DNA from: Rhodospirillaceae bacterium
GTDB taxonomy: Bacteria; Pseudomonadota; Alphaproteobacteria; Rhodospirillales; UBA2165
Reading direction: 5' to 3'
NCBI GenBank assembly: GCA_002723345.1
Contig: PBNV01000031.1
Location: 115,953-179,952 of the forward strand
DNA length: 64,000 nucleotides
A program made the translations under genes and the position numbers. The notes under the pieces were generated by a model. The model was not told where the DNA came from. It saw only the letters and a program-made list of their open reading frames with translations, and did not search any database. Below, one piece after another: positions 12,011 through 40,240 of the stretch (positions within the stretch are counted from its first letter, which is position 1; the number at the start of each line of letters is the position of its first letter).

Positions 12011-12083
12011 TTTTTGCTGGGCTCGCACGAGGCCTAACACCCAAGGATCCAACTCACAGAAAAAACTAGCTCGTCGGTCGGGC

Positions 12084-13271
12084 TTACCGTCGGAGAAGGG
12101 GCCGTTCATCAATAGGTAAGTGGAGCAGGGCGGCAACAATTCCTAGTCCGATAGAAACCAGCCAAATTGAATCATAAGAACCCGTTTGGTCAAATAAGAT
12201 ACCTCCGATCCAGCTGGAGGTAAACGCGCCCAGCTGGTGGCTTGCGAAGACGATGCCGAATAGTGTTGCTAAGTAACGAATTCCGAAGAACTGCCCAACG
12301 AGTCCGCTCGTTAGAGGCACTGTCGCGAGCCATAGAAACCCGAGGATCCCGGAAAAAATCAACACTGATGTGACAGATATAGGCACAAGGATGAAGGCTG
12401 CGAACAAGATGGCGCGGCCGAAATAAATGCTGCTCAAAAGGTATTTTTTACTCCATTTGTCACCTGCCCAGCCGAAAGAGAATGTGCCGATTAGGTTGGT
12501 AACCCCCACCACCGAGATTGCCGCGCCCGGCAACAAATCCGGCATTTCAAGCGATGTCAGGTAGTTGGGAAAATGACTCATAATAAAGGCCACGTGAAAG
12601 CCGCAAACATAAAATCCAAGGGTAAGGCAGATATAGCCTGAATGCGTCCGCGCCTGATGGAGGGCATCCATCAATTTTTCCGCTCCTGCATTGGATGCAT
12701 TTAGGTCGCTTGCCTTGCCTCTCAGTGCGAGGGCCAACGGCACGATCAGGCCCATTGTTATGCCAAGTAGGATGACCGTCGTGGCCCAACCAAAGTCTGT
12801 GATTAGATTTTGAGATATCGGCGCAATTGTAATCTGGCCCATTGTTGCGACTGCGCTACCTATGCCAAGGAACAGGCTACGCCGTTCTGTTGGCACGTTC
12901 CGCGCGATGACCCCTAAAATAACAGCTAAGGTCGCGCCAGACCCAGCGATCCCAACGATTACGCCTGCGCTAATGTGAATTTCCCAAACGGAGGTGGCAT
13001 TTGCTAGCCACCACATTCCGAGAACGTTTGCGATGCCGGCTAATACGATGGTACGCCCCGAACCGTATTTATCTGCGAGTGCACCGATGTAAGGCTGGGA
13101 CAATCCCCAAAGCAGGTTCTGTATTGCAAGGGTTAACGAAAAAACGCTGAAATCGAGCTGAAAATCCTGGGTTAACGGATTGAGGAACAGCCCGAAGCTC
13201 TGTCGAACGCCCATGGTGATTAGGAGAACAGCGCATCCTGAAACCACAACGAGATAGGCCTTTTTAGACAT
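12084..13271 (-). CDS. MFS transporter (paralog of 2625..3842)
   Basis: Contains QNLLWGLSQPYIGALADKYGSGR and has the same architecture as the gene at 2.6 kb. The start is at the ATG at 13271 (MSKKAYLVVV), preceded by GGAGAA. Confidence 0.8.
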   Translation of the reverse strand: MSKKAYLVVVSGCAVLLITMGVRQSFGLFLNPLTQDFQLDFSVFSLTLAIQNLLWGLSQPYIGALADKYGSGRTIVLAGIANVLGMWWLANATSVWEIHISAGVIVGIAGSGATLAVILGVIARNVPTERRSLFLGIGSAVATMGQITIAPISQNLITDFGWATTVILLGITMGLIVPLALALRGKASDLNASNAGAEKLMDALHQARTHSGYICLTLGFYVCGFHVAFIMSHFPNYLTSLEMPDLLPGAAISVVGVTNLIGTFSFGWAGDKWSKKYLLSSIYFGRAILFAAFILVPISVTSVLIFSGILGFLWLATVPLTSGLVGQFFGIRYLATLFGIVFASHQLGAFTSSWIGGILFDQTGSYDSIWLVSIGLGIVAALLHLPIDERPLLRR

Positions 13272-13693
13272 ATAATTCTCCACGGAGACGGCGAGCGTGT
13301 ATAGACCTCCCCGCAAAGGAGCGCAAACGCCCATTTAAGTTTTATATCTTGGGTCGATGCAAGGGCATCATGGAAAGCGGTAGCGCGCTCAATCGAAACT
13401 TTATGCGACTGTCTTAATCTTTAGTTTAATCCTACCCTTCAAAATTATGAAAAGTTCAGGAGAGCTCTTAGAAAACGATCTTTTCATTATTGGCAGAAGA
13501 TATCGAGAATAAAAAGTGGTCGAAATAACCTGCGAGTAAGAGCAGAAAAATTACAAGTCTCAGCCACCTCTGGCCGAAAGCCAACGTAATTTTTTTGGGA
13601 GAGTAATCCAAAGCATTAAATCTTTACACAATTACTAATTGCATTTTACATTTGTGTATTTCGTAATTTGAACTCAACCTGTTAGGATCAGCA

Positions 13694-14665
13694 TTGGAAA
13701 ATAGCCAAGTAAAAGCCGAGCAAGGACTTTTGTTCGACTCTGTTGTCGCGCCTATGACTGTCACGGATTTTTTCAAAGAATATTTCCGGAATAAACCAGT
13801 CGTAATAAAGGGCGCAGATAATAAATTTTCTGATGTTATGAATTGGAAATTATTATCAGACATACTGAATCAGTCCGCTATTTGGTCGCCGCACTCTTTA
13901 AACCTGTATTCCAATACGAGAGCAATCTCTGCAGATCAATTCAGTTATCCATCACTTACGCGTGAGGGAAACGAGGGGCGGTTGATTAACTTCGATCAGG
14001 TCGCGGAACACGTAAAAAATGGCGCCTCTCTCGTTCTTAACGACATAGAAACACTTAACCCAGGGCTTAAATCAGTAGCTCACGCTATTGAGAGTACTTT
14101 CGTAGGTAAAGTGCAGGCAAACCTTTACTGTTCTCGGAGTGAAAACCAGGCGTTACCCGTCCATTTTGACACACACGACGTGTTCGCATTTCAAGTAGAG
14201 GGATCAAAACAGTGGCGCGTTTATGGCACATCAGTTCAAAAGCCAATCAATCATCATTTTTTTAAGTCAATAGATCAAAGTTTTCATGAGGCCAACAAAG
14301 GTGAGTTGTCCATAGACGAGGAATTAACTTCAGGCGATTTTATATACATTCCAAGAGGATTTTATCACGAAGCAATGTGCCATTCTGAGAGTACTGTGCA
14401 TGTTAGTTATAGTTGTGTGCCTATAATAGGGATTGATCTTTTAACGGCTTTTTTCGATGTGGCGGTAAAGGATGAGCTGTTCAGAGATGCTATTCCTAAT
14501 CCAGATGAGAAATCTGGTAAAAAGTTGGAGGAACACATTACTCGGTTAGTCGGACGAATGAGAAATAACGTGCTAAGTCCTGAATTTCAGGAACCGTTTA
14601 AGGAGGCCTTAAACAATTATAAGTTTGATAGGTTTAGCGTTAAGTTGCCCGATGATTTTGTTTAG
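13694..14665 (+). CDS. JmjC / cupin-4 family 2-oxoglutarate-Fe(II) oxygenase-like protein
   Basis: 323 aa with an HxD...H candidate metal triad in PVHFDTHDVFAFQVEGSKQWRVY and STVHVSY, plus FIYIPRGFYHEA. This resembles bacterial ribosomal-protein hydroxylases (YcfD/RoxA type). TTG start is uncertain (alternative ATG at 13754). The gene is AT-rich. Confidence 0.6.
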   Translation: MENSQVKAEQGLLFDSVVAPMTVTDFFKEYFRNKPVVIKGADNKFSDVMNWKLLSDILNQSAIWSPHSLNLYSNTRAISADQFSYPSLTREGNEGRLINFDQVAEHVKNGASLVLNDIETLNPGLKSVAHAIESTFVGKVQANLYCSRSENQALPVHFDTHDVFAFQVEGSKQWRVYGTSVQKPINHHFFKSIDQSFHEANKGELSIDEELTSGDFIYIPRGFYHEAMCHSESTVHVSYSCVPIIGIDLLTAFFDVAVKDELFRDAIPNPDEKSGKKLEEHITRLVGRMRNNVLSPEFQEPFKEALNNYKFDRFSVKLPDDFV

Positions 14666-14925
14666 TCGCCAATTTTATTAGGTGGTTTTTCTTATTTCAT
14701 TCTCGCGGGCGAGTAAGGAGTAACGACGCATAGTTATACTGCAACCACTCTATTTAGACCAGAAATTGTAGCTACACGCTCTCTCCTTCAGACAAATTTT
14801 GGTTCCCTGTGATTCAGAAATATTATCCTGATGGCTTTATCGCAAAACTTGTCTCATATAACCTACATCAAAGATCCAGGATTCTAACTGACTGCACGAT
14901 TTAAAATAGTTTGTGAGGATGTTTA

Positions 14926-15633
14926 ATGAATAAAATTTATGCCGATGCGCAAGCGGCACTCGAAGGACTGATGTACGATGGCATGACGGTTATGGCAGGT
15001 GGGTTTGGCCTTTGCGGAATTCCAGAACACCTGATCCTTGCTATGCGAGATTCTGGCATCGGTAACCTTACCGTTGTTTCGAACAACGCTGGTGTTGATG
15101 ATGCCGGACTTGGTCTACTTCTAAAGACTAGGCAAATTAAAAAAATGATCTCCTCTTATGTGGGCGAAAATAAAACCTTTGAACAGCAATACCTTGACGG
15201 CGAATTGGAGCTGGAGTTCAATCCGCAAGGTACCCTTGCAGAACGTATTCGTGCTGGCGGGGCCGGCATACCAGCGTTTTTCACAAAAACAGGTTTTGGC
15301 ACACAAATCGCTGATGGCAAGGAAACCCGGGCATTTGATGGAGAAAACTACGTGATGGAGACGGGTCTCGTTGCTGACGTTGCTATTGTGAAAGCAGATG
15401 TGGGTGACTCGGAGGGAAATTTGATTTTCCGAAAAACGGCGCGCAATTTTAACTCTATCATGGCCACCGCAGGGAAGGTGACAATCGCTGAAGTGGAGAA
15501 CCTGGTAGAACCGGGTGAGTTGGATAAGGACAAAATTCATACGCCAGGCATATTTGTGCAGCGCATTATCAAAGGCACGAGCTTTGAAAATCGCATCGAA
15601 CAATTGACGACCCGTGAACGGGATGTGGCATAA
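14926..15633 (+). CDS. scoA: 3-oxoacid CoA-transferase subunit A
   Basis: 235 aa with GGFGLCGIPE, VSNNAG, and ELEFNPQGTLAERIRAGGAGIPAFFT, which are canonical family I CoA-transferase A subunit motifs. Confidence 0.9.
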   Translation: MNKIYADAQAALEGLMYDGMTVMAGGFGLCGIPEHLILAMRDSGIGNLTVVSNNAGVDDAGLGLLLKTRQIKKMISSYVGENKTFEQQYLDGELELEFNPQGTLAERIRAGGAGIPAFFTKTGFGTQIADGKETRAFDGENYVMETGLVADVAIVKADVGDSEGNLIFRKTARNFNSIMATAGKVTIAEVENLVEPGELDKDKIHTPGIFVQRIIKGTSFENRIEQLTTRERDVA

Positions 15634-32337: not shown

Positions 32338-32552
32338 TTATCCTAAGTTCACATTCGCGAGGAAATTAGGCGCTTTGATACTGGACCGGATGCAAAACAT
32401 CGGTTGATAGTCACAAATCGTAGTGAGTGCTTTAGAAGGTATTAATCAGGTTAACGCTGCGCTGAGTAGGTGCGGACCTGGCCCTTTTTCTTTTTTTCCG
32501 ACAGGTTTTCTGGTAGACCCTCTGTCGAGAGTTATCGCACTACTTAGGCTCT

Positions 32553-32771
32553 ATGCAGATGATCAAAAAGGCGATCCCACTGTTAACCTTACTGCTGGTG
32601 ATGTTTTGGCCGAGCGCTTCACAGGCTTATTTAGATCCTGCGACAGGCAGTATGCTCATACAGTTGTTAGTCGGTGGAGCAGTAGCTATTGGTGTTACGT
32701 TGAAAATGTATTGGGAGAAAGTCAGGTTTTTCTGGCAAAAAAAAGTTTTGAAAAAAGATCGACCTGAATAG
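32553..32771 (+). CDS. Small membrane protein with a YLDPATGS motif
   Basis: 72 aa: signal-like N-terminus, AYLDPATGSMLIQLLVGGAVAIGV (a hydrophobic helix), and a basic tail. It is preferred over the overlapping 114-aa ORF at 32423..32767, which has no membrane or signal logic. Confidence 0.4.
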   Translation: MQMIKKAIPLLTLLLVMFWPSASQAYLDPATGSMLIQLLVGGAVAIGVTLKMYWEKVRFFWQKKVLKKDRPE

Positions 32772-32924
32772 CAAGTTCGGTCGAATAAAAGTGCCAATGC
32801 GCACGTCTGGTGTTTTTAGCGCAAGGCCTTTACTCCCGAGAAAACACTTAAATTTTCAAATGATATTTCTTTTCAGTAATTTTCCAGAATTATTTTACTC
32901 GGAATGGCAGATACATTTTAAAAC

Positions 32925-34442
32925 ATGCATAATTTAAGCGTCAAAAAAGGCTTTGCTCTAATATTACCTTGCTTGGTTTTCATTACGATGCAGGTTGTTT
33001 TTCAGTCTAGTCAGCTGCATTCAATACTAAATCTGGAGAGTTTAGCCCTCTTTTCTGTATTAGTCTTTGTTGGTGTTTGGGCAGGAGTCTTACTTGAATT
33101 TGAAAATCGCATGGTATCTTCAATTGTTATTGGGGCGCTATTTTCCATATTCCTAAATTTTATCGTATCCATAGAATACTCTGAGATTCGCATGCGCCAC
33201 AGTGTCCCCTTTTACTTTCTTATAGGTTTTTCCATTCATTGGTTTATGGGTGGGAAATTTCTAGTCATAATTTCTTCTGGTTTAATTGCAGTCTTATTAT
33301 CAACTTTATTGCTTCCATCAGAAAAGCCTTGGAAGGAGAACACGTTTAAGTTGGCGAAAACCGTACACCCCTCAAATTACCGCTCACCAATTCTTCACAT
33401 AATTTTAGATGGGCATCTTGGGTTGGCAGCATTTCCTCGTCAAATTGAGGGAGTTGAGCGATTAAACAAAAGAATTGGCGGTATCTATAAACAATATGGC
33501 TTTAAGGTTTATTCCCATGCTTTTAGCCGCCACAATTATACTCAAAACTCTATTCCAGAAATCCTAAATTTGAAGGAAATCAAAATTGATAAGAGTTATA
33601 TTAAAACGGACCCAAAACGCGGATTCGTACTAAAAAAGTCGGCCGTATTCGAGCAATACCGTAAGCACGGCTATGAATTGAACGTATTTCAGACCGATGT
33701 CATGGACTTTTGTTCGTTGGGATATTTTTCTTATTGCCTGACCGCGCCTTATAGAAACCTTGCATGGCTATCAAAGTCGGGCTTCGATTTTTCCACGAAA
33801 TTTTTCGTACTGGCATCAGCATTTCTAAACCAATCAAATTTGTTCCGTTGGTTTGAGAGGTATGTGCTGGCTAGGTGGAATATCGCTGCCCATCCGAAGA
33901 GTTTTCCGCCCGTCAACATGGTAGAGATGTTTAAACGAATTTCGAGGAGCACAGATTTGATTAAACCTGGGACCGTATCACTCGCCCATGTTCTGCTACC
34001 TCACGAGCCCTATGCTTTGGATGAATTATGCAACCTTCGTCCAATAAGTGAATGGTACCCTCAGAATTTAATTAAGGACCAGGAGTCTTACTTCGCTCAG
34101 ATGAATTGCACATACACGCTACTAGAGGAGTTGTTTGAATCGATCCGTAACAATCAAAGCGCAAAAGACGCTATCATAATTGTCCACGGCGATCATGGTT
34201 CCCGTATCGCACACAATGAAAAGTATGCAAAACTGTACACTTACTCCACGTTGTTTGCCGTTCGACACCCAAATTTACCCGCAAATGTTTTTAGCGATGA
34301 AGAGAGTATCACGACATTATTTTCCAAACATGTGTTGGAGTACCTTGGCCTAAACGACGGTAAAAAATTTAGAAACAACTCAATAATGAAAATTAAAGAG
34401 GCTGGCGGGGAGCTGGTCGAGGATGCAGCCCTAAAGTTTTAA
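32925..34442 (+). CDS. Membrane-anchored sulfatase/alkaline-phosphatase-superfamily transferase-hydrolase (LtaS/EptA-like architecture)
   Basis: 505 aa with about 5 N-terminal TM helices and then a soluble domain. That domain has ILHIILDGHLG (metal-ligand Asp region), a candidate nucleophile region HNYTQNSIPE, HVLLPHEPY, and IIVHGDHGSRI (the HGDHG metal motif). Confidence 0.6.
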   Translation: MHNLSVKKGFALILPCLVFITMQVVFQSSQLHSILNLESLALFSVLVFVGVWAGVLLEFENRMVSSIVIGALFSIFLNFIVSIEYSEIRMRHSVPFYFLIGFSIHWFMGGKFLVIISSGLIAVLLSTLLLPSEKPWKENTFKLAKTVHPSNYRSPILHIILDGHLGLAAFPRQIEGVERLNKRIGGIYKQYGFKVYSHAFSRHNYTQNSIPEILNLKEIKIDKSYIKTDPKRGFVLKKSAVFEQYRKHGYELNVFQTDVMDFCSLGYFSYCLTAPYRNLAWLSKSGFDFSTKFFVLASAFLNQSNLFRWFERYVLARWNIAAHPKSFPPVNMVEMFKRISRSTDLIKPGTVSLAHVLLPHEPYALDELCNLRPISEWYPQNLIKDQESYFAQMNCTYTLLEELFESIRNNQSAKDAIIIVHGDHGSRIAHNEKYAKLYTYSTLFAVRHPNLPANVFSDEESITTLFSKHVLEYLGLNDGKKFRNNSIMKIKEAGGELVEDAALKF

Positions 34443-34479
34443 AGGAAGGACCCGTTTTTGATGCTGGCTCAAACCCGAT

Positions 34480-36030
34480 TTAAAGTACACGCCTTCGGAT
34501 TTGCGAAGAAACCATGTCAATTATGAAGATGGTAACAAAAATCATAATAATTATTGCAGATACTCGAGGGTAGTTAAACATTCTAAACGATGATTGAAGT
34601 TCGTATCCTATGCCACCAGCTCCGACTATACCAAGCATGGTGGCCATTCTCACGTTTCGGTCAAGGATATACAAATTGTTGCCAACAAAAGATGGAAGCA
34701 CTTGAGGGATTATAGAAAAAGCGAGAACCTGGAGGCGCGAGGCATTCATCGAGGTAAGTGCTTCTGACGGGCCTGGATCTATATGTTCGATGGCCTCGGC
34801 ATAAAATTTAGCAAGAAATCCCATCGTGTGAAGACCGAGAGCTAGAACTCCAGGGATTGCGCCAAAACCCACAGCAATGACCAAGATCATTGCCATTACA
34901 AATTCGGGAACGGCTCTAAAAAACACGGTTATAACCCGACACATCACATAAATACTATAATTTGGAGAAATATTGGAAGCTGATAAGAACCCGAGAGGAA
35001 TTGATAGGGTAATGGCCATTAATGTCCCTAAAAAAGCCATCTCAACTGTTTCTAGCATCAACCCAAGTAATTGATTCATATTGGAAAAATCTGGTGGCAT
35101 CATTCTTTGAATGACATCGGAAAAATAGGTAAAAGTATTATGAAACAGCTCTAATGGGTCGATCTCTAAATCTATAATTGCTAAAATTGTAAATAGAATT
35201 AGACCTGAAATGCTCAAATATGTGGGCCAATTCCATTGCGGTAGGATGTAAGACTCCAAAAGCTTGCGGTTGCCTTCCTCTATGTCGATATATTTGTCTA
35301 ATTTTCCACCATAACCACTTATTTCTGCACTTTCATGAGCGACTAGGACTAATTCTTTGATCGTATTTTTAGTTTTCTCCGGCAATACTGATGAGAAGAC
35401 CAATGGAGCGCCTGGAATAGGCTTAGACTCATGAAGGATACGTATCCTTTGGGCGTACTCTGGGTTACGAGCAATATTCTCTTGCAGATTCACTGAGCTT
35501 ACGGCTGCAACATCAGCACGACCCTCCAATAATATTCGGATAGCCTCATCATGATTATTTGCTTCTATAATTTCAGAAAAATGCAACCTGTTATCTAGAT
35601 TTACCCCGACATCTTTTAGTTCTCTTTTAGGGACGAGGTATCCACTCATAGATTGCGGATTACCTATAACTATTCTCGTCCCCTTAATGTTTTTTAGATC
35701 CTCAACATTTGACTCTTTGAGAGAAATAAAAAGGCTATTGTATGTTGGGGTTGATTGTCCCTTCAGCAACCCGACTGCAAAAGGCTGTATAATCCCTTTT
35801 TCGTTAGCCTCAAGATACGCGTAAGGGCCTAGCCATCCCATTTGCGCTTCCCCGTTTGTCAGTTTAGAGAGCGCCTCTTCATAACTTTCGCAGCGCTGGA
35901 TATGGAAGGAAAAAGATGTTTTCTCTGTCAGAAATTCAAAGAGATTATCAAAATCGAGGCCGGAGGCTTTTCGGCTCGCGGGTGCGATGGCCACTTGAAT
36001 TGTTGTTTCAGGTTCCACCATTTCCATCAA
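34480..36030 (-). CDS. Fusion protein: PhnD-like phosphonate-binding domain plus PhnE-like ABC permease
   Basis: 516 aa. Residues about 1-260 are PhnD-like (GWLGPYAYLEA, SMSGYLVP, ADVAAVSS). The rest is PhnE-like (ETVEMAFLGT, RAVPEFVMAMILV, LDRNVRMATMLGIVGAGGIG). The N-terminus has no signal peptide. The start is TTG 36030 or ATG 36027. Confidence 0.75.
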   Translation of the reverse strand: MMEMVEPETTIQVAIAPASRKASGLDFDNLFEFLTEKTSFSFHIQRCESYEEALSKLTNGEAQMGWLGPYAYLEANEKGIIQPFAVGLLKGQSTPTYNSLFISLKESNVEDLKNIKGTRIVIGNPQSMSGYLVPKRELKDVGVNLDNRLHFSEIIEANNHDEAIRILLEGRADVAAVSSVNLQENIARNPEYAQRIRILHESKPIPGAPLVFSSVLPEKTKNTIKELVLVAHESAEISGYGGKLDKYIDIEEGNRKLLESYILPQWNWPTYLSISGLILFTILAIIDLEIDPLELFHNTFTYFSDVIQRMMPPDFSNMNQLLGLMLETVEMAFLGTLMAITLSIPLGFLSASNISPNYSIYVMCRVITVFFRAVPEFVMAMILVIAVGFGAIPGVLALGLHTMGFLAKFYAEAIEHIDPGPSEALTSMNASRLQVLAFSIIPQVLPSFVGNNLYILDRNVRMATMLGIVGAGGIGYELQSSFRMFNYPRVSAIIIMIFVTIFIIDMVSSQIRRRVL

Positions 36031-36050
36031 TTTTCATCCGGGTAACAAAA

Positions 36051-36848
36051 TTAGGATACAAAAGGAACGTCAATACTTGAGATATATTCGTTATTATGGG
36101 CCCCAAAAAACACGTCCTGTCTCTCACTGCCATAGATATTATGGAGGTATTTTAGGTCTAAAGACGCGCTAGGTGCATCAAAAACTATCTTTCCGTTAGT
36201 CAAACCTATAATTCGATCAGCAAATTTCAGCGCCAAGTCTACTTGATGAAGATTACACAAAACGGTAATCCCCTGTGCCGAGCTAATTCGTTTGAGCATT
36301 GATAGCACCTGAAATGCAATTAAGGGATCAAGACTGGCTACCGGTTCATCTGCCAAAACAATTAGAGGCGAGCGAGCTATAGCCCTGGCAATGCCAACTC
36401 TTTGCTGTTGGCCACCAGAGAGTTGATCCGCTCGAACGTGAGCTTTTGAGAGCAGGCCCACTTGATCAATACATTCGAGTGCTCGCAATTTCTGAGATTT
36501 ATCGAATAAATAAAAAAGCGAACCAACTGGGTGGCACTTATCCAACATCCCTGACAGCACATTATTTATCGTCGACAGATTCTTGACCAAGTTAAAATCT
36601 TGAAAAATCATACTAATGTGTTGCCGAGCTACAAACGGATCATCAAAATTTATGTGGTTTTTATTTAAAATAATTGAGCCGCTGGTCGGTTTATTTAATC
36701 CATTTATACTTCTTAATAATGTTGTTTTTCCGGACCCACTAGGTCACAAAATAACAACAAATTCTCCCTTTTTTACCTCAAAATTCACCTCTTTTAATGC
36801 TTTGGTCCCGTCATTAAATGTATGCTGAAGGTTTTGTACGTTTAGCAT
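36051..36848 (-). pseudogene. phnC: Phosphonate-type ABC ATPase PhnC, interrupted by an in-frame TGA at the first Walker-A Gly codon
   Basis: From the ATG at 36848 the frame reads [53 protein letters not shown]...ISMIFQDFNL...[14 protein letters not shown]...[10 protein letters not shown]. The stop codon at 36744..36746 occupies the G of GPSGSGKT. The track reports only the downstream 186 aa. Confidence 0.8.
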
Positions 36849-36906
36849 ATTTTCATGTTTATTAATCAGCGGGTAAAAATAAAAATAAAAAACTTGGCAT
36901 CATGAT

Positions 36907-37755
36907 TTATTTTCTAGCGTCGAGCAAACCCTCCACCTCTCGCAGTAGGTCATAGTCGGAGTCGGTAACAGGGATATAACGTGCCATTTCTCCGCCGTAG
37001 CCCCCAATTTTACCGTGTTTATGAGCCTCCAAAACGGCCGCCCTTATTTTTTTTCTGACTGGCTCCGGGAGCTTAGTCGAGTAGGCTAGTGGGGGAGGTG
37101 GAACGGGGGATGACACATGAATTATGCGGAAATCATCTTTTTTAAACGTTTGATCCTTGAGGCGCGCATCAAAATTTCTAGAACTGACCCCACACACATC
37201 AGCGTGTTTATTTCGGATCGACATCATGCACGCGTCGTGGCTTCCAGCGTAAAAAACGCGTTTAAAGTCCTGGGCTGTTGAAAGACCAAATTTTTGCAGT
37301 TCTACCCGGGGGATTAAATCCCCGCTGGTTGAACCTATACTATTCAGCGCCAGTAATTTGCCTTTTAAGTCGGGCAGTGTTTTGTAGGCGCTGTCCGTAC
37401 GAACAACAAAATAAGTGTTATAAGTCGCATCGGTATCACCTTTACGAACGCCTGCCGCAAAAGCCTCTGCATTTGCTATTTTTGCTGCCATTATGTAGGT
37501 CTTACCACCAAACCAGGCTATTTGCGCCCTGTCTGCCCGCATCGACTCAACGGCCGCATTATAGTCCGTAACTCGAATTGGCGTTATTTCATATCCCGTT
37601 AGCTTGTTTACAATCTCTATTAAATTTACGTAGTCTTTTTCATCGCCCTTCTCGCTGGCTGGAACGAACACCATGTTGATTTTTACTGGTTTTGCTATCA
37701 GGGGAACAGTCCATGCGATCAGCAAAATAACAAAAAGAGGGAGCAATTTATTCAT
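36907..37755 (-). CDS. phnD: PhnD-family periplasmic phosphonate/phosphite-binding protein
   Basis: 282 aa with a signal peptide MNKLLPLFVILLIAWTVPLIA, then MVFVPA, IAWFGGKTYIMA, and STSGDLIPR, typical of the PhnD family. Confidence 0.8.
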   Translation of the reverse strand: MNKLLPLFVILLIAWTVPLIAKPVKINMVFVPASEKGDEKDYVNLIEIVNKLTGYEITPIRVTDYNAAVESMRADRAQIAWFGGKTYIMAAKIANAEAFAAGVRKGDTDATYNTYFVVRTDSAYKTLPDLKGKLLALNSIGSTSGDLIPRVELQKFGLSTAQDFKRVFYAGSHDACMMSIRNKHADVCGVSSRNFDARLKDQTFKKDDFRIIHVSSPVPPPPLAYSTKLPEPVRKKIRAAVLEAHKHGKIGGYGGEMARYIPVTDSDYDLLREVEGLLDARK

Positions 37756-37781
37756 TAATTCACCTACTGGTTACCTTTTTA

Positions 37782-38903
37782 TCAGCTAGCAAACTCGACG
37801 AGTGCTTTTTTATAGTCTTCAACCGTATCTATCTCTCTCCAGCCACGTTCAATGATAACGCTGTGAACGGATACTCCGAGATCCACCATTTCTTGGATTA
37901 AGTCAGTGAGGTAGGCTTTTTGGAATGTTTTGGCCCGTTGGAAGGGCTTGTCCCAATAAAGTGCTTTTGACCTCTGAAAATGACGCTTAAAAATTTCCGC
38001 CCCTCGTGGCGTCAATTTAATCATACCAATAAATTCACCATGAACATCATCCTTGTTGGTCATAATTTTACCGATTTTTATGACCTCATTATTGGCGTCC
38101 AATACCACATTTTCCGCCTCATCAATTGGATGTTCTTTCCTGCCGACATACATTCCGCGCCAATCGATATCTACTACAATCGAAATGTCGTGCTTGGACT
38201 CAAGTAATCTACGAACAATAAAGCTCTCGAATAGTATGTCAGAGTAAGATATAACAACATTATTGTTTATTTCCTTTTCTGCATAAAATAGTGAATTTAA
38301 GATATTGTTATTCTCATATTCATCATTATCAAAATATTTGATATCTGGATAATCTATACACTCTTTTTTGTACCCTCTAATCAGCGAAATATCAGATATG
38401 CCTGTTTCTTGGTATGCCTCAAGCTGGCGTTGCAGCAGGGTCTTGTCTCCAAATTCTAAAAGACATTTTGGACGCACATCGGTATATGACCCCATCCTGC
38501 TACCGAGACCGGCTGCAATAATGATCGCTTTTGTATTCTTGGCCATAAGCAACTCCCGCATTTCTCTGATCTGTAACTCGCTGGCGCGTTGGTCTTGGAT
38601 CTCCCTCAATAGGTGCACTGTTTCGGGACTTTTCTGGATCATCTCTGATACATCTGCCGCGATATCATTTCTAGACTGCCCTGCTAAATCGAAAGCTAAT
38701 TTTTTATCCGCATTCAACAGATTGGCGATCTCCATCACGGTTGCCGCTTTTGGGGCGTCACGTTTCTGTTTCTCGATGTCGTTAAGGTACGAAGGGGAAA
38801 TGCCTAATTGACGCGCAAATTCCCTGAGCCCTAGACCCGCATCTAATCTAAGATCTCGAATGTACTGTCCAAAAGTATCGCTTGGGTCACCCATGAGAGC
38901 CAC
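37782..38903 (-). CDS. XRE-type HTH domain fused to a LicC/PntC-like nucleotidyl(cytidylyl)transferase
   Basis: 373 aa. The N-terminus FGQYIRDLRLDAGLGLREFARQLGISPSYLNDIEKQKR is a Cro/C1 HTH. From about residue 122 it reads KAIIIAAGLGSRMG...RPKCLL...ISYSDILF...WREIDTVEDYKKA, a GT-A NTP-transferase fold of the phosphocholine or 2-AEP cytidylyltransferase type. Confidence 0.75.
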   Translation of the reverse strand: MALMGDPSDTFGQYIRDLRLDAGLGLREFARQLGISPSYLNDIEKQKRDAPKAATVMEIANLLNADKKLAFDLAGQSRNDIAADVSEMIQKSPETVHLLREIQDQRASELQIREMRELLMAKNTKAIIIAAGLGSRMGSYTDVRPKCLLEFGDKTLLQRQLEAYQETGISDISLIRGYKKECIDYPDIKYFDNDEYENNNILNSLFYAEKEINNNVVISYSDILFESFIVRRLLESKHDISIVVDIDWRGMYVGRKEHPIDEAENVVLDANNEVIKIGKIMTNKDDVHGEFIGMIKLTPRGAEIFKRHFQRSKALYWDKPFQRAKTFQKAYLTDLIQEMVDLGVSVHSVIIERGWREIDTVEDYKKALVEFAS

Positions 38904-38955
38904 ATTTGTTCAACTGTTCGCAAACAGGTAAACAATCTAGGTCCGATGGTCAATA

Positions 38956-40110
38956 TTATTTTTTTACTATGTCATAAATCAACTCGGAGCCCCTTTTGGC
39001 ACTTTGGCCGATATTAAATACAGTTTTGTCCCGCAAAGCTCGAATTTGTGTGACAAATTTCTCTGAGTCTTCCATAATTTCTGTCACGACATCTGTCACG
39101 TTGTCTAACTTCTCTTTCCCAAGAATTATGCCAATCTTATCACGCGCACTAATTTCAATGGGAATATTTTCTAACTCCGTGTAACGTGGATTATTTATTT
39201 TTTTGGGAACGTCAATGAATATGACGGGCCGCTCTAAGCCGAAGGCAAACTCTAAACTGACGCCCGACCAGTCACTTATTAATACATCGGCTTTGATCAA
39301 ACTCTCAAAAATAGCGTTATCCATATCCATTTCAAAATTTGGATGACTATTAAAGTTCGCAGCTAAGAGTTTCACATTTTTGGCAGATTTGATCCTGCTT
39401 TGCGGGTGAAGCCGCAACGTCACATAATGTCCCGCATCCAGTAGCGACCCAACTAATTCTTTTGCACCATTTTCAATCAAGCCCTCTGACCCCCATGATG
39501 GGGCAACTAATACGTTATAATTCGAGGTTGCTGGTTTTGAAATAAGGGGCTGCGAAGATACCATATCCAGAATGGTGTCTAATGGTGCGTATCCATGTTC
39601 ATACAAATTTTTTTCTGGGAGATTATTCAATTTCTCCCATTCGCGAATTTCCGATACATGGTGGGATCCGGAGCACAAAATTGTGTCAAAGTGATCAAAA
39701 GCCCCTGGCTTGTAAACCATGTGAGAACTCACAAGAGAGTGTTGCAAATAGATATAGTGGACCGGGTAACGCGATCGTTTAATATGAAAGGAGTGAAGGT
39801 CAGGCATTGTCATCACTAAGACCTTGGCCTTTAAGGTTTGAAAGGCAAATATCATTGCGCTTCCCCAACCTACATATACTGATTTTACATTCTCTGGTGG
39901 TTCCGAGAGCAACGGGTCATCTTGATCAGAGGTTAAATAACAAATTCTTAAATTATGATCCTCTGTTAAATGGGACATTACTGGCAAAAGAAAACCGTGG
40001 TATGCCCCCCCCTCCGAGTAAAATACCAAGTTTTTATCTTCCAAAGGTAGCGACCGCAGTTCAATGCACCCACGCCAAGATGCAATAAACGATTGGAAAT
40101 ATTTAAGCAC
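38956..40110 (-). CDS. TagF-like CDP-alcohol (glycero/ribitol)phosphotransferase family protein
   Basis: YNVLVAPSWGSEG matches the family APTWR-type motif. ADVLISDWSGVSLEFAFGLERPVIFIDVP matches the LITDYSS...F motif. The start is uncertain: the track start at 40203 overlaps the tRNA, so I suggest the GTG at 40110 (MLKYFQSF...). Confidence 0.7.
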   Translation of the reverse strand: MLKYFQSFIASWRGCIELRSLPLEDKNLVFYSEGGAYHGFLLPVMSHLTEDHNLRICYLTSDQDDPLLSEPPENVKSVYVGWGSAMIFAFQTLKAKVLVMTMPDLHSFHIKRSRYPVHYIYLQHSLVSSHMVYKPGAFDHFDTILCSGSHHVSEIREWEKLNNLPEKNLYEHGYAPLDTILDMVSSQPLISKPATSNYNVLVAPSWGSEGLIENGAKELVGSLLDAGHYVTLRLHPQSRIKSAKNVKLLAANFNSHPNFEMDMDNAIFESLIKADVLISDWSGVSLEFAFGLERPVIFIDVPKKINNPRYTELENIPIEISARDKIGIILGKEKLDNVTDVVTEIMEDSEKFVTQIRALRDKTVFNIGQSAKRGSELIYDIVKK

Positions 40111-40164
40111 TTTCAAACCAGGCAAAACAATACAGTTTTGTTTAGAGACTTCGGCCCATAAGAA

Positions 40165-40240
40165 TGGTGCCGCCTGGGTGACTTGAACACCCGACCCTCG
40201 CATTACGAATGCGATGCTCTACCAACTGAGCTAAGGCGGC
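40165..40240 (-). tRNA. tRNA-Thr (anticodon CGU), with encoded CCA
   Basis: The minus strand reads GCCGCCTTAGCTCAGTTGGTAGAGCATCGCATTCGTAATGCGAGGGTCGGGTGTTCAAGTCACCCAGGCGGCACCA. It folds into a perfect cloverleaf: 7-bp acceptor, GCTC/GAGC D stem, TCGCA/TGCGA anticodon stem with loop TTCGTAA, and GGGTG/CACCC T stem with a TTCAAGT loop. Confidence 0.95.

Follow-up and report, generated by a model that had tools for sequence, protein, structure and literature searches.

Background

The binding proteins of ATP-binding cassette (ABC) importers are by definition extracytoplasmic. The well-characterised fusions of a binding domain with an ABC permease all follow this rule as well: in the GlnPQ and OpuA types the domain ends up outside the cell, either behind an N-terminal signal peptide or by its place at the C-terminus, and replaces the free binding protein. 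To our knowledge, the regulatory domain of CmpC/NrtC is the only well-studied exception. The gene described here encodes a PhnE-family permease with a PhnD-family binding domain on its N-terminus and no export signal. It lies in a stretch of 64,000 nucleotides from a Rhodospirillaceae bacterium (contig PBNV01000031.1, positions 115,953 to 179,952), called the window below; all coordinates are positions in this window. No description of the fusion or of its gene module was found in the literature, and protein databases name the fusion protein simply PhnE.

The CmpC/NrtC domain is related to the periplasmic proteins CmpA and NrtA. It is a cytoplasmic, binding-protein-like C-terminal regulatory domain (CRD) found on the cyanobacterial importers of bicarbonate (CmpABCD) and nitrate (NRT) (PMC13287603). 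In CmpABCD, binding of intracellular nitrate by the CRD of CmpC unlocks the two ATPases, so that this CRD senses nitrate while its transporter moves bicarbonate (PMC13287603). In MetN (C2 domain) and ModC, other cytoplasmic ligand-binding domains shut the importer when the internal ligand is high (PMC13287603).

The reading favoured here, by analogy with CmpC/NrtC, is that the fused PhnD-family domain would be an internal Venus-flytrap sensor that regulates import. The probability of this whole statement, regulation included, is put at roughly 0.6.

The fusion protein

34480..36030, minus strand: fusion gene, PhnD-like domain plus PhnE permease; 516 amino acids from the TTG at 36030
35245..36030, minus strand: N-terminal PhnD-family substrate-binding domain, residues 1-262 (fold about 10-262), without signal peptide; from PF12974, AlphaFold2 and Foldseek
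35230..35283, minus strand: conserved helix ahead of the first transmembrane helix (TM1), residues 250-267, consensus LESYLRPQWGW; links the domain to TM1
34483..35229, minus strand: PhnE transmembrane domain, residues 268-516; from TIGR01097, AlphaFold2 helices and hydropathy
34738..34785, minus strand: EAA coupling loop, residues 416-431, HIDPGPSEALTSMNAS; after TM4, cytoplasmic docking site for PhnC and topological anchor

The true start of the gene is probably the ATG at 36027, the second codon, which gives 515 residues. This product has exactly the sequence of NCBI MBN07610.1 ('MAG: phosphonate ABC transporter, permease protein PhnE [Rhodospirillaceae bacterium]'). Pfam finds PF12974 (Phosphonate-bd) at residues 26-235, with an E-value of 2.5e-43, and PF00528 (BPD_transp_1) at residues 344-515, with an E-value of 4.6e-17. 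The NCBIfam model TIGR01097 (PhnE) matches residues 271-515 over profile positions 8-251 of 252. It scores 288 bits, well past its equivalog cut-off of 216.7 bits. For the other half, TIGR01098 (the phosphate/phosphite/phosphonate binding-protein subfamily) matches residues 11-228 and, at 127.6 bits, clears its cut-off of 112.

AlphaFold2 modelling from 79 homologues reached a mean predicted local distance difference test score (pLDDT) of 84, and mostly exceeded 90 in the binding domain. Foldseek superposes this domain on the crystal structures of PtxB, ArrX, AioX and PhnD over about 255 columns, with target-normalised TM-scores of up to 0.85. An earlier reading of the DNA, made from the letters alone and called the sequence-only reading below, had described a complete PhnD-type domain and a full PhnE-like permease in one open reading frame (ORF). 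Pfam, NCBIfam and AlphaFold2/Foldseek all agree with that description.

By profile score, by its six membrane helices and by an EAA loop after the fourth of these, the fusion protein belongs to the PhnE family. Sequence, fold and pocket place its N-terminal half in the PhnD superfamily, but this half has no export signal, is not predicted to have the localisation typical of that family, and scores below the PhnD equivalog. That model, TIGR03431, has a cut-off of 261 bits; the fused domain reaches 119 bits and the free PhnD encoded nearby 197.

Conservation of the fusion

A database search found both Pfam domains together in at least 120 homologue clusters (at the 90% level), whose members are 52-98% identical and 500-540 residues long. 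This is the search for the same architecture in other genomes that the sequence-only reading had proposed. When one genome of each species was scanned, 20 loci had the fusion without interruption, and these plus the loci from an exact protein look-up make up the 24 fused loci analysed here. The hosts are Rhodospirillales, Thalassospiraceae, some Pelagibacteraceae, gammaproteobacterial single-cell genomes, Planctomycetia, Omnitrophota and Desulfobacteraceae. The longer 'ORFs' in three loci (L003, L019 and L067) are artefacts of the first-start rule.

The sequence-only reading had also raised the option of a sequencing-error frameshift joining two genes. A frameshift or assembly origin is ruled out by the intact fusion in at least 120 clusters and 24 genomic loci.

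In one related assembly, on a contig of 133,639 bp, the fusion gene is split into pieces of 151 and 305 amino acids, with the break off the domain boundary. This points to a disrupted gene in that other assembly.

A stand-alone cytoplasmic version of the domain was looked for with residues 1-262 in a search of representative proteins, and this candidate was rejected. Only 8 representatives matched at an E-value of 1e-30 or better, and the three short top matches examined (269-350 residues) are contig-end fragments of fused proteins. The representative search also returned many proteins of 540-630 residues with two tandem PhnD-like stretches (P0133, P0139, P0141 and others), which have a different multi-domain architecture.

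The phnC gene directly upstream of the fusion gene carries a stop codon. The sequence-only reading had overlooked this stop, and also that the genes form a conserved module with a nucleotidyltransferase gene.

36051..36848, minus strand: phnC ATPase gene, 265 codons; TIGR02315 at 298 bits with X at the stop

The in-frame TGA at 36744-36746 stands where the Walker A motif should have its first glycine (GEFVVIL*PSGSGKTT). Three assemblies have GGA at this codon; their DNA is 99.96-99.98% identical in the aligned region and they encode an identical fusion protein. GGA is also found in L001 / a 96% identical TARA contig. Recoding of UGA (code 4 or 25) was considered and is ruled out, since near-identical assemblies have GGA and TGA is an ordinary stop here, terminating 18 of the 48 long ORFs of the window. 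This singleton TGA is either a variant or an error of sequencing, and it has no bearing on the fusion.

This stop, together with the split copy, could be taken to mean that the fusion is a functionless relic or artefact, be it of annotation or assembly, a read-through product or a decaying duplicate. However, the stop is not present in the three near-identical assemblies, homologues from several phyla with as little as 45-52% identity still have the uninterrupted fusion, the residues of the pocket are kept, and the trees of the fused and secreted proteins mirror each other as they diversify. Conservation thus largely refutes a relic, and the probability left for it is close to nil.

Membrane topology

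Residues 1-262 hold no hydrophobic segment; the top 19-residue Kyte-Doolittle window there is 0.89. The main membrane helices of the permease peak at 1.9-2.6 on the same measure, and TM5 at 1.3. Among 120 homologues no hydrophobic N-terminus or signal peptide was found, and their N-termini are a short polar tail running straight into the first beta strand ('hhVVAPASDH'). This bears out the sequence-only reading, which had called the N-terminus neither hydrophobic nor signal-like, and for which an upstream start with a signal anchor would have been a refutation. Such a start is ruled out by an in-frame TGA two codons upstream of the TTG and by the tight phnC/permease junction in homologues, where the fusion gene adjoins or overlaps phnC.

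The AlphaFold2 model and hydropathy agree on six membrane helices, at about residues 268-287, 318-350, 358-388, 391-415, 432-471 and 487-515. The segment 288-317 is polar, with a top hydropathy window of 0.18 and on average 4.2 acidic and 1.6 basic residues. In type I ABC importers the EAA loop contacts the ATPase. In the fusion protein this loop follows the fourth helix, and its residues A424, L425, S427, G429 and A430 are nearly invariant. Four helices between the N-terminal domain and a cytoplasmic loop put the domain on the cytoplasmic side. An odd helix count, which would have moved the domain to the periplasm, was thus not found: there are six, and the domain is predicted on the side of the EAA loop.

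Homology gives the same picture. MetI and ArtQ align to residues 314/325-515 of the fusion protein, MetI to 325-515. E. coli MetI has five membrane helices (PMC8416018), so the permease half amounts to a MetI core preceded by one further helix, which canonical PhnE has as well.

The distribution of charges also agrees, by the positive-inside rule, with a cytoplasmic N-terminal domain. The 15 residues before TM1 contain on average 2.56 lysines and arginines, versus 0.46 after TM1, and this bias towards the domain side is seen in 73 of 79 sequences. The C-terminal tail has a mean of 2.4 lysines and arginines in 8 residues. The helix ahead of TM1, which spans residues 250-265 in the AlphaFold2 model and has Q265 and W266 invariant, is itself rich in these residues, consistent with the cytoplasmic side. 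From hydropathy, the positive-inside rule and MetI homology, the PhnD-like domain is predicted to be cytoplasmic, and this is held to be very likely.

The opposite placement would be a domain tethered outside the cell in the style of GlnPQ and OpuA, exported in some unconventional way and delivering substrate beside the free PhnD. Known fusions of this sort do lie outside the cell, and the binding pocket is complete. However, such export would have to take place without a signal peptide in 120 homologues and without a hydrophobic segment in residues 1-262. It also clashes with the even number of helices (four) before the EAA loop, with the positive charges on the domain side of TM1, and with a free secreted PhnD that is nearly always co-encoded. 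An extracytoplasmic domain is therefore considered highly improbable.

The binding pocket and its origin

36907..37755, minus strand: free secreted PhnD-family binding protein, 282 amino acids with signal peptide; PF12974 with an E-value of 1.3e-54

The separate, secreted PhnD that the sequence-only reading placed two genes upstream is indeed there, with a hydrophobic N-terminus (MNKLLPLFVILLIAWTVPLIA). Besides the window, it is encoded in 17 of the 18 fused loci with enough upstream sequence. Its best solved relative is Prochlorococcus PtxB, at 105 bits.

Pocket positions were numbered from an alignment with E. coli PhnD (MG1655, mature numbering). In that protein Y47, Y93, S127, S129 and H157 are presumably the ligands of the phosphonate oxygens. 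They correspond to Y50, Y97, S127, S129 and H160 of the fusion protein, all invariant in 79 sequences. The Y47, Y93, S127 and S129 positions are kept in 25/25 fused domains and H157 in 24/25 (with one Gln), while all five are kept in 30/30 secreted PhnDs of the module. From this conservation, the fused domain appears to keep its phosph(on)ate site under strong constraint.

The rest of the pocket is different. E177 and D205 of E. coli PhnD bind the amine of 2-aminoethylphosphonate (PMC12718374). The E177 position is Arg in 30/30 secreted PhnDs versus Val or Ile in 25/25 fused domains, and the D205 position is Pro in the secreted proteins versus Ala in 23 of the 25 fused domains. Because these tail positions differ, the fused domain probably reads the rest of its ligand differently from the delivery protein.

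The two proteins are paralogues. Aligned over 256 residues, with a single small gap, the fused domain shares 30% identity with the secreted PhnD of its own operon (E-value 1e-40, 129 bits); its best match among solved structures reaches only about 55 bits. Neighbour-joining places the fused domains together in a single clade whose sister group is the secreted PhnDs of the module, and the branching of the two is mirrored. Such sister clades indicate one old duplication and fusion, after which the fused domain and the secreted PhnD would have diverged together.

Modules with and without the domain

37782..38903, minus strand: XRE-type helix-turn-helix (HTH) domain plus LicC/PntC-like nucleotidyltransferase, 373 amino acids; Pfam HTH_31/HTH_3 and NTP_transf_3

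The permease gene always comes last in the four-gene module, after the HTH-nucleotidyltransferase, the secreted PhnD and PhnC. There is one permease gene per module in all 24 fused and all 42 unfused loci. A single permease gene implies a homodimer, which in fused modules means two cytoplasmic domains per transporter. The HTH-nucleotidyltransferase is the constant first gene, found upstream in 16/16 fused and 29/31 unfused loci with enough sequence. Its best solved relative is LicC (1jyk, E-value 1.9e-16), a CTP:phosphocholine cytidylyltransferase; 6pd1, a nucleotidyltransferase/aminotransferase, also matched. By analogy with BirA or NadR, the protein may combine the roles of enzyme and repressor.

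In about 40 Pelagibacteraceae loci (L023-L065, from single-cell genomes) the PhnE of this module is unfused and 266-300 residues long (mostly 275), and so it is in one Rhodobacteraceae single-cell genome, one deltaproteobacterium and one spirochaete. Most SAR11 genomes have this unfused form. The unfused SAR11 PhnE starts with a lysine-rich stub followed by the same helix ahead of TM1 (MEKK...YLRPQWSWKT). In the permease tree these sequences sit beside the fused SAR11 ones (L012, L013), inside the fused clade, and the deltaproteobacterial and spirochaete sequences are basal. This placement suggests a single gain of the domain and a later loss, in SAR11 at least. The transporter can run with free PhnD alone, which makes the domain an accessory. 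That it is dispensable in SAR11 modules fits a regulatory add-on, not a component that delivers substrate.

The unfused modules also bear on a different role for a cytoplasmic domain, that of an acceptor. Here the domain would catch substrate as it leaves the permease and hand it to the LicC-like nucleotidyltransferase, shielding it from phosphatases, with no regulation involved. The predicted cytoplasmic site and the conserved pocket fit this equally well, the nucleotidyltransferase gene accompanies the domain in each of the 16 checkable loci, and the short rigid helix keeps the domain close to the membrane. Conversely, the tail Arg of the secreted PhnD is Val or Ile in every fused domain, which argues against identical ligand recognition, and SAR11 runs the module, nucleotidyltransferase included, without the domain. 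We also know of no precedent for such a hand-off in ABC importers. An acceptor role is judged unlikely.

PhnC has a C-terminal tail of 8-30 residues (36051-36125 in the window) with the motif GHxxG[ML][FY]FG in 20/20 fused modules. The motif is absent from 37/40 unfused modules, where SAR11 PhnC ends right after '...IY'. As a cytoplasmic partner surface this tail is only suggestive. It was not used as evidence for a partner of the fused domain, since three non-SAR11 unfused modules keep a short PhnC tail and the absence elsewhere amounts to a single SAR11 event.

A proposed role as an internal sensor

The proposed mechanism is as follows. The fusion gene would encode the sole permease subunit of a PhnCDE-type ABC importer, and each of its two copies would carry a PhnD-family domain in the cytoplasm. 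Free periplasmic PhnD would bring substrate from outside. The fused domain, held near the membrane by the short helix ahead of TM1, would bind an intracellular phosphorus compound, which could be accumulated substrate, a product, or phosphate. As it opens or closes beside the PhnC ATPases, it would switch transport down or up by changing how freely the PhnC dimer or TM1 can move. This would be trans-regulation of the kind performed by the binding-protein-like domain of CmpC/NrtC.

A role that is regulatory rather than substrate-delivering had been floated in the sequence-only reading. We infer the same, given that it fits the absence of the domain in SAR11 modules, the conserved pocket and the CmpC/NrtC precedent.

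Several points weigh against this internal sensor. The regulatory step is argued by analogy, and the CmpC/NrtC domain sits on an ATPase and not on a permease, so the mechanics may differ. The loss in SAR11 amounts essentially to a single evolutionary event, and this lineage is known for its streamlined genomes. The AlphaFold2 model has a predicted TM-score (pTM) of only 0.57. Finally, E. coli ProW reportedly translocates an N-terminal tail of about 100 residues without a signal peptide, so that placing a large tail outside is not strictly impossible.

A more ambitious version can be put forward tentatively, and with more doubt than confidence. The importer might be the first with a cytoplasmic Venus-flytrap sensor on its membrane subunit that senses a ligand it does not transport, such as phosphate or the nucleotide-activated product.

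In that case, abundant marine bacteria would couple the scavenging of organophosphate or phosphonate head groups for surface decoration to their internal phosphorus status. The fused and unfused orthologues of one module are natural controls and, if the sensor reading is correct, would offer a genetically separable system for the study of trans-regulation.

Gene neighbourhood

38956..40150, minus strand: TagF-like glycerophosphotransferase gene; PF04464 with an E-value of 1.6e-06, homologues adjoin the module in many loci
32925..34442, plus strand: membrane sulfatase-superfamily protein of LtaS/EptA-like architecture; PF00884 with an E-value of 9.3e-08, hydrophobic N-terminal helices
40165..40240, minus strand: tRNA-Thr(CGT), from ARAGORN; edge of the low-GC segment

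The listed ORF of the TagF-like gene reaches to 40203 and overlaps tRNA-Thr, so its true start is probably further in. The sulfatase-superfamily gene is convergent with the fusion gene, and a similar gene follows the module in L068. Across loci, the neighbours of the module include TagF-like glycerophosphotransferases, membrane sulfatase-superfamily proteins, Wzy, NeuB, CDP-alcohol phosphatidyltransferase and sulfation genes. Genes for C-P lyase, phosphonatase or phosphite dehydrogenase (ptxD) were not found among the Pfam-annotated neighbourhoods.

The LicC-like nucleotidyltransferase and the glycerophosphotransferase-type neighbours lead to the conclusion that the imported compound probably decorates surface glycans. 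The transporter would then take up an organophosphate or phosphonate that is nucleotide-activated and subsequently transferred to these glycans, and it is probably not there to supply phosphorus.

GpxB Arg223, at the E177 position, binds hydroxyls of glycerol phosphate (PMC12718374). The secreted PhnD has an Arg at this position, and a TagF-like glycerophosphotransferase gene adjoins the module. This hints at a polyol phosphate as the substrate of the secreted PhnD, although its overall similarity to GpxB is low. With only 40 bits to 9lf9, a GpxB-like identity was rejected and no substrate was assigned.

The module lies in a segment of low GC content at about 32-40 kb (roughly 32400-40240), with 41-42% GC versus 49-57% in the flanks. 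Besides the four genes of the transport module it contains the sulfatase-like and TagF-like genes, and it has the look of an acquired island. At its borders, direct repeats of the tRNA-Thr end were looked for and not found, and no integrase was noticed among its listed ORFs.

In L068, a few kb from the module, positions 12077-15208 encode another secreted PF12974 protein beside a PAS/HisKA/response-regulator hybrid kinase. This looks like a PhnD-family periplasmic sensor that partners the kinase.

Such fusion proteins are annotated as 'PhnE', and in metagenomic surveys they are counted as markers of phosphonate catabolism, for which their gene context gives no support. The module points instead to an unstudied route in marine Alphaproteobacteria, in which an imported phosphorus compound would be nucleotide-activated for the decoration of surface glycans. 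This bears on marine phosphorus cycling.

Comparison with known systems

The module has most of its parts in common with the canonical PhnCDE, PtxABC and GpxB-type importers (PhnT family, TC 3.A.1.9). Its PhnC and PhnE pass the NCBIfam thresholds, its binding domains have the same residues as E. coli PhnD for the phosph(on)ate head, and its secreted PhnD shares with GpxB the Arg at position 223 of the latter (PMC12718374). It differs from all of these in that the permease has an extra domain of 262 residues and both binding domains score under the PhnD equivalog cut-off. In addition, it is linked to a LicC-like nucleotidyltransferase and surface-glycan genes, and not to C-P lyase, phosphonatase or phosphite dehydrogenase.

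Like GlnPQ and OpuA, the PhnE fusion combines a binding domain and a transmembrane domain in one polypeptide. Unlike these, it comes without a signal peptide, its domain is predicted to be cytoplasmic, and a free secreted PhnD is encoded as well. It is not of the GlnPQ/OpuA type: the free binding protein is not replaced and, as far as the predicted location goes, the domain is not outside. The regulatory domains of MetN (C2) and ModC are small, have an unrelated fold and sit on the C-terminus of the ATPase, whereas here a full periplasmic-binding-protein fold sits on the permease.

Closest in likeness is the CRD of CmpC/NrtC, which is cytoplasmic, as the fused PhnD domain is predicted to be, and covalently attached to a type I ABC importer. 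The fused domain is a paralogue of its own system's periplasmic binding protein, as the CRD is of CmpA/NrtA. The sensed and transported ligands of CmpC differ, which is paralleled by the differing tail pocket of the fused domain. Conversely, the fused domain belongs to the PhnD family (PF12974) and the CRD to the NrtA family. It is attached to the N-terminus of the permease and not to the C-terminus of the ATPase, where PhnC here has its tail of only 8-30 residues. There would also be two copies per transporter, versus one CRD.

By analogy, the fusion would work most like the CmpC/NrtC domain, but it is not a member of that group. If the sensor reading holds, it would be a second independent case of an importer's own binding protein copied as an internal sensor, in another binding-protein family, on another subunit, and conserved across several phyla. 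This would make such copying a recurrent design.

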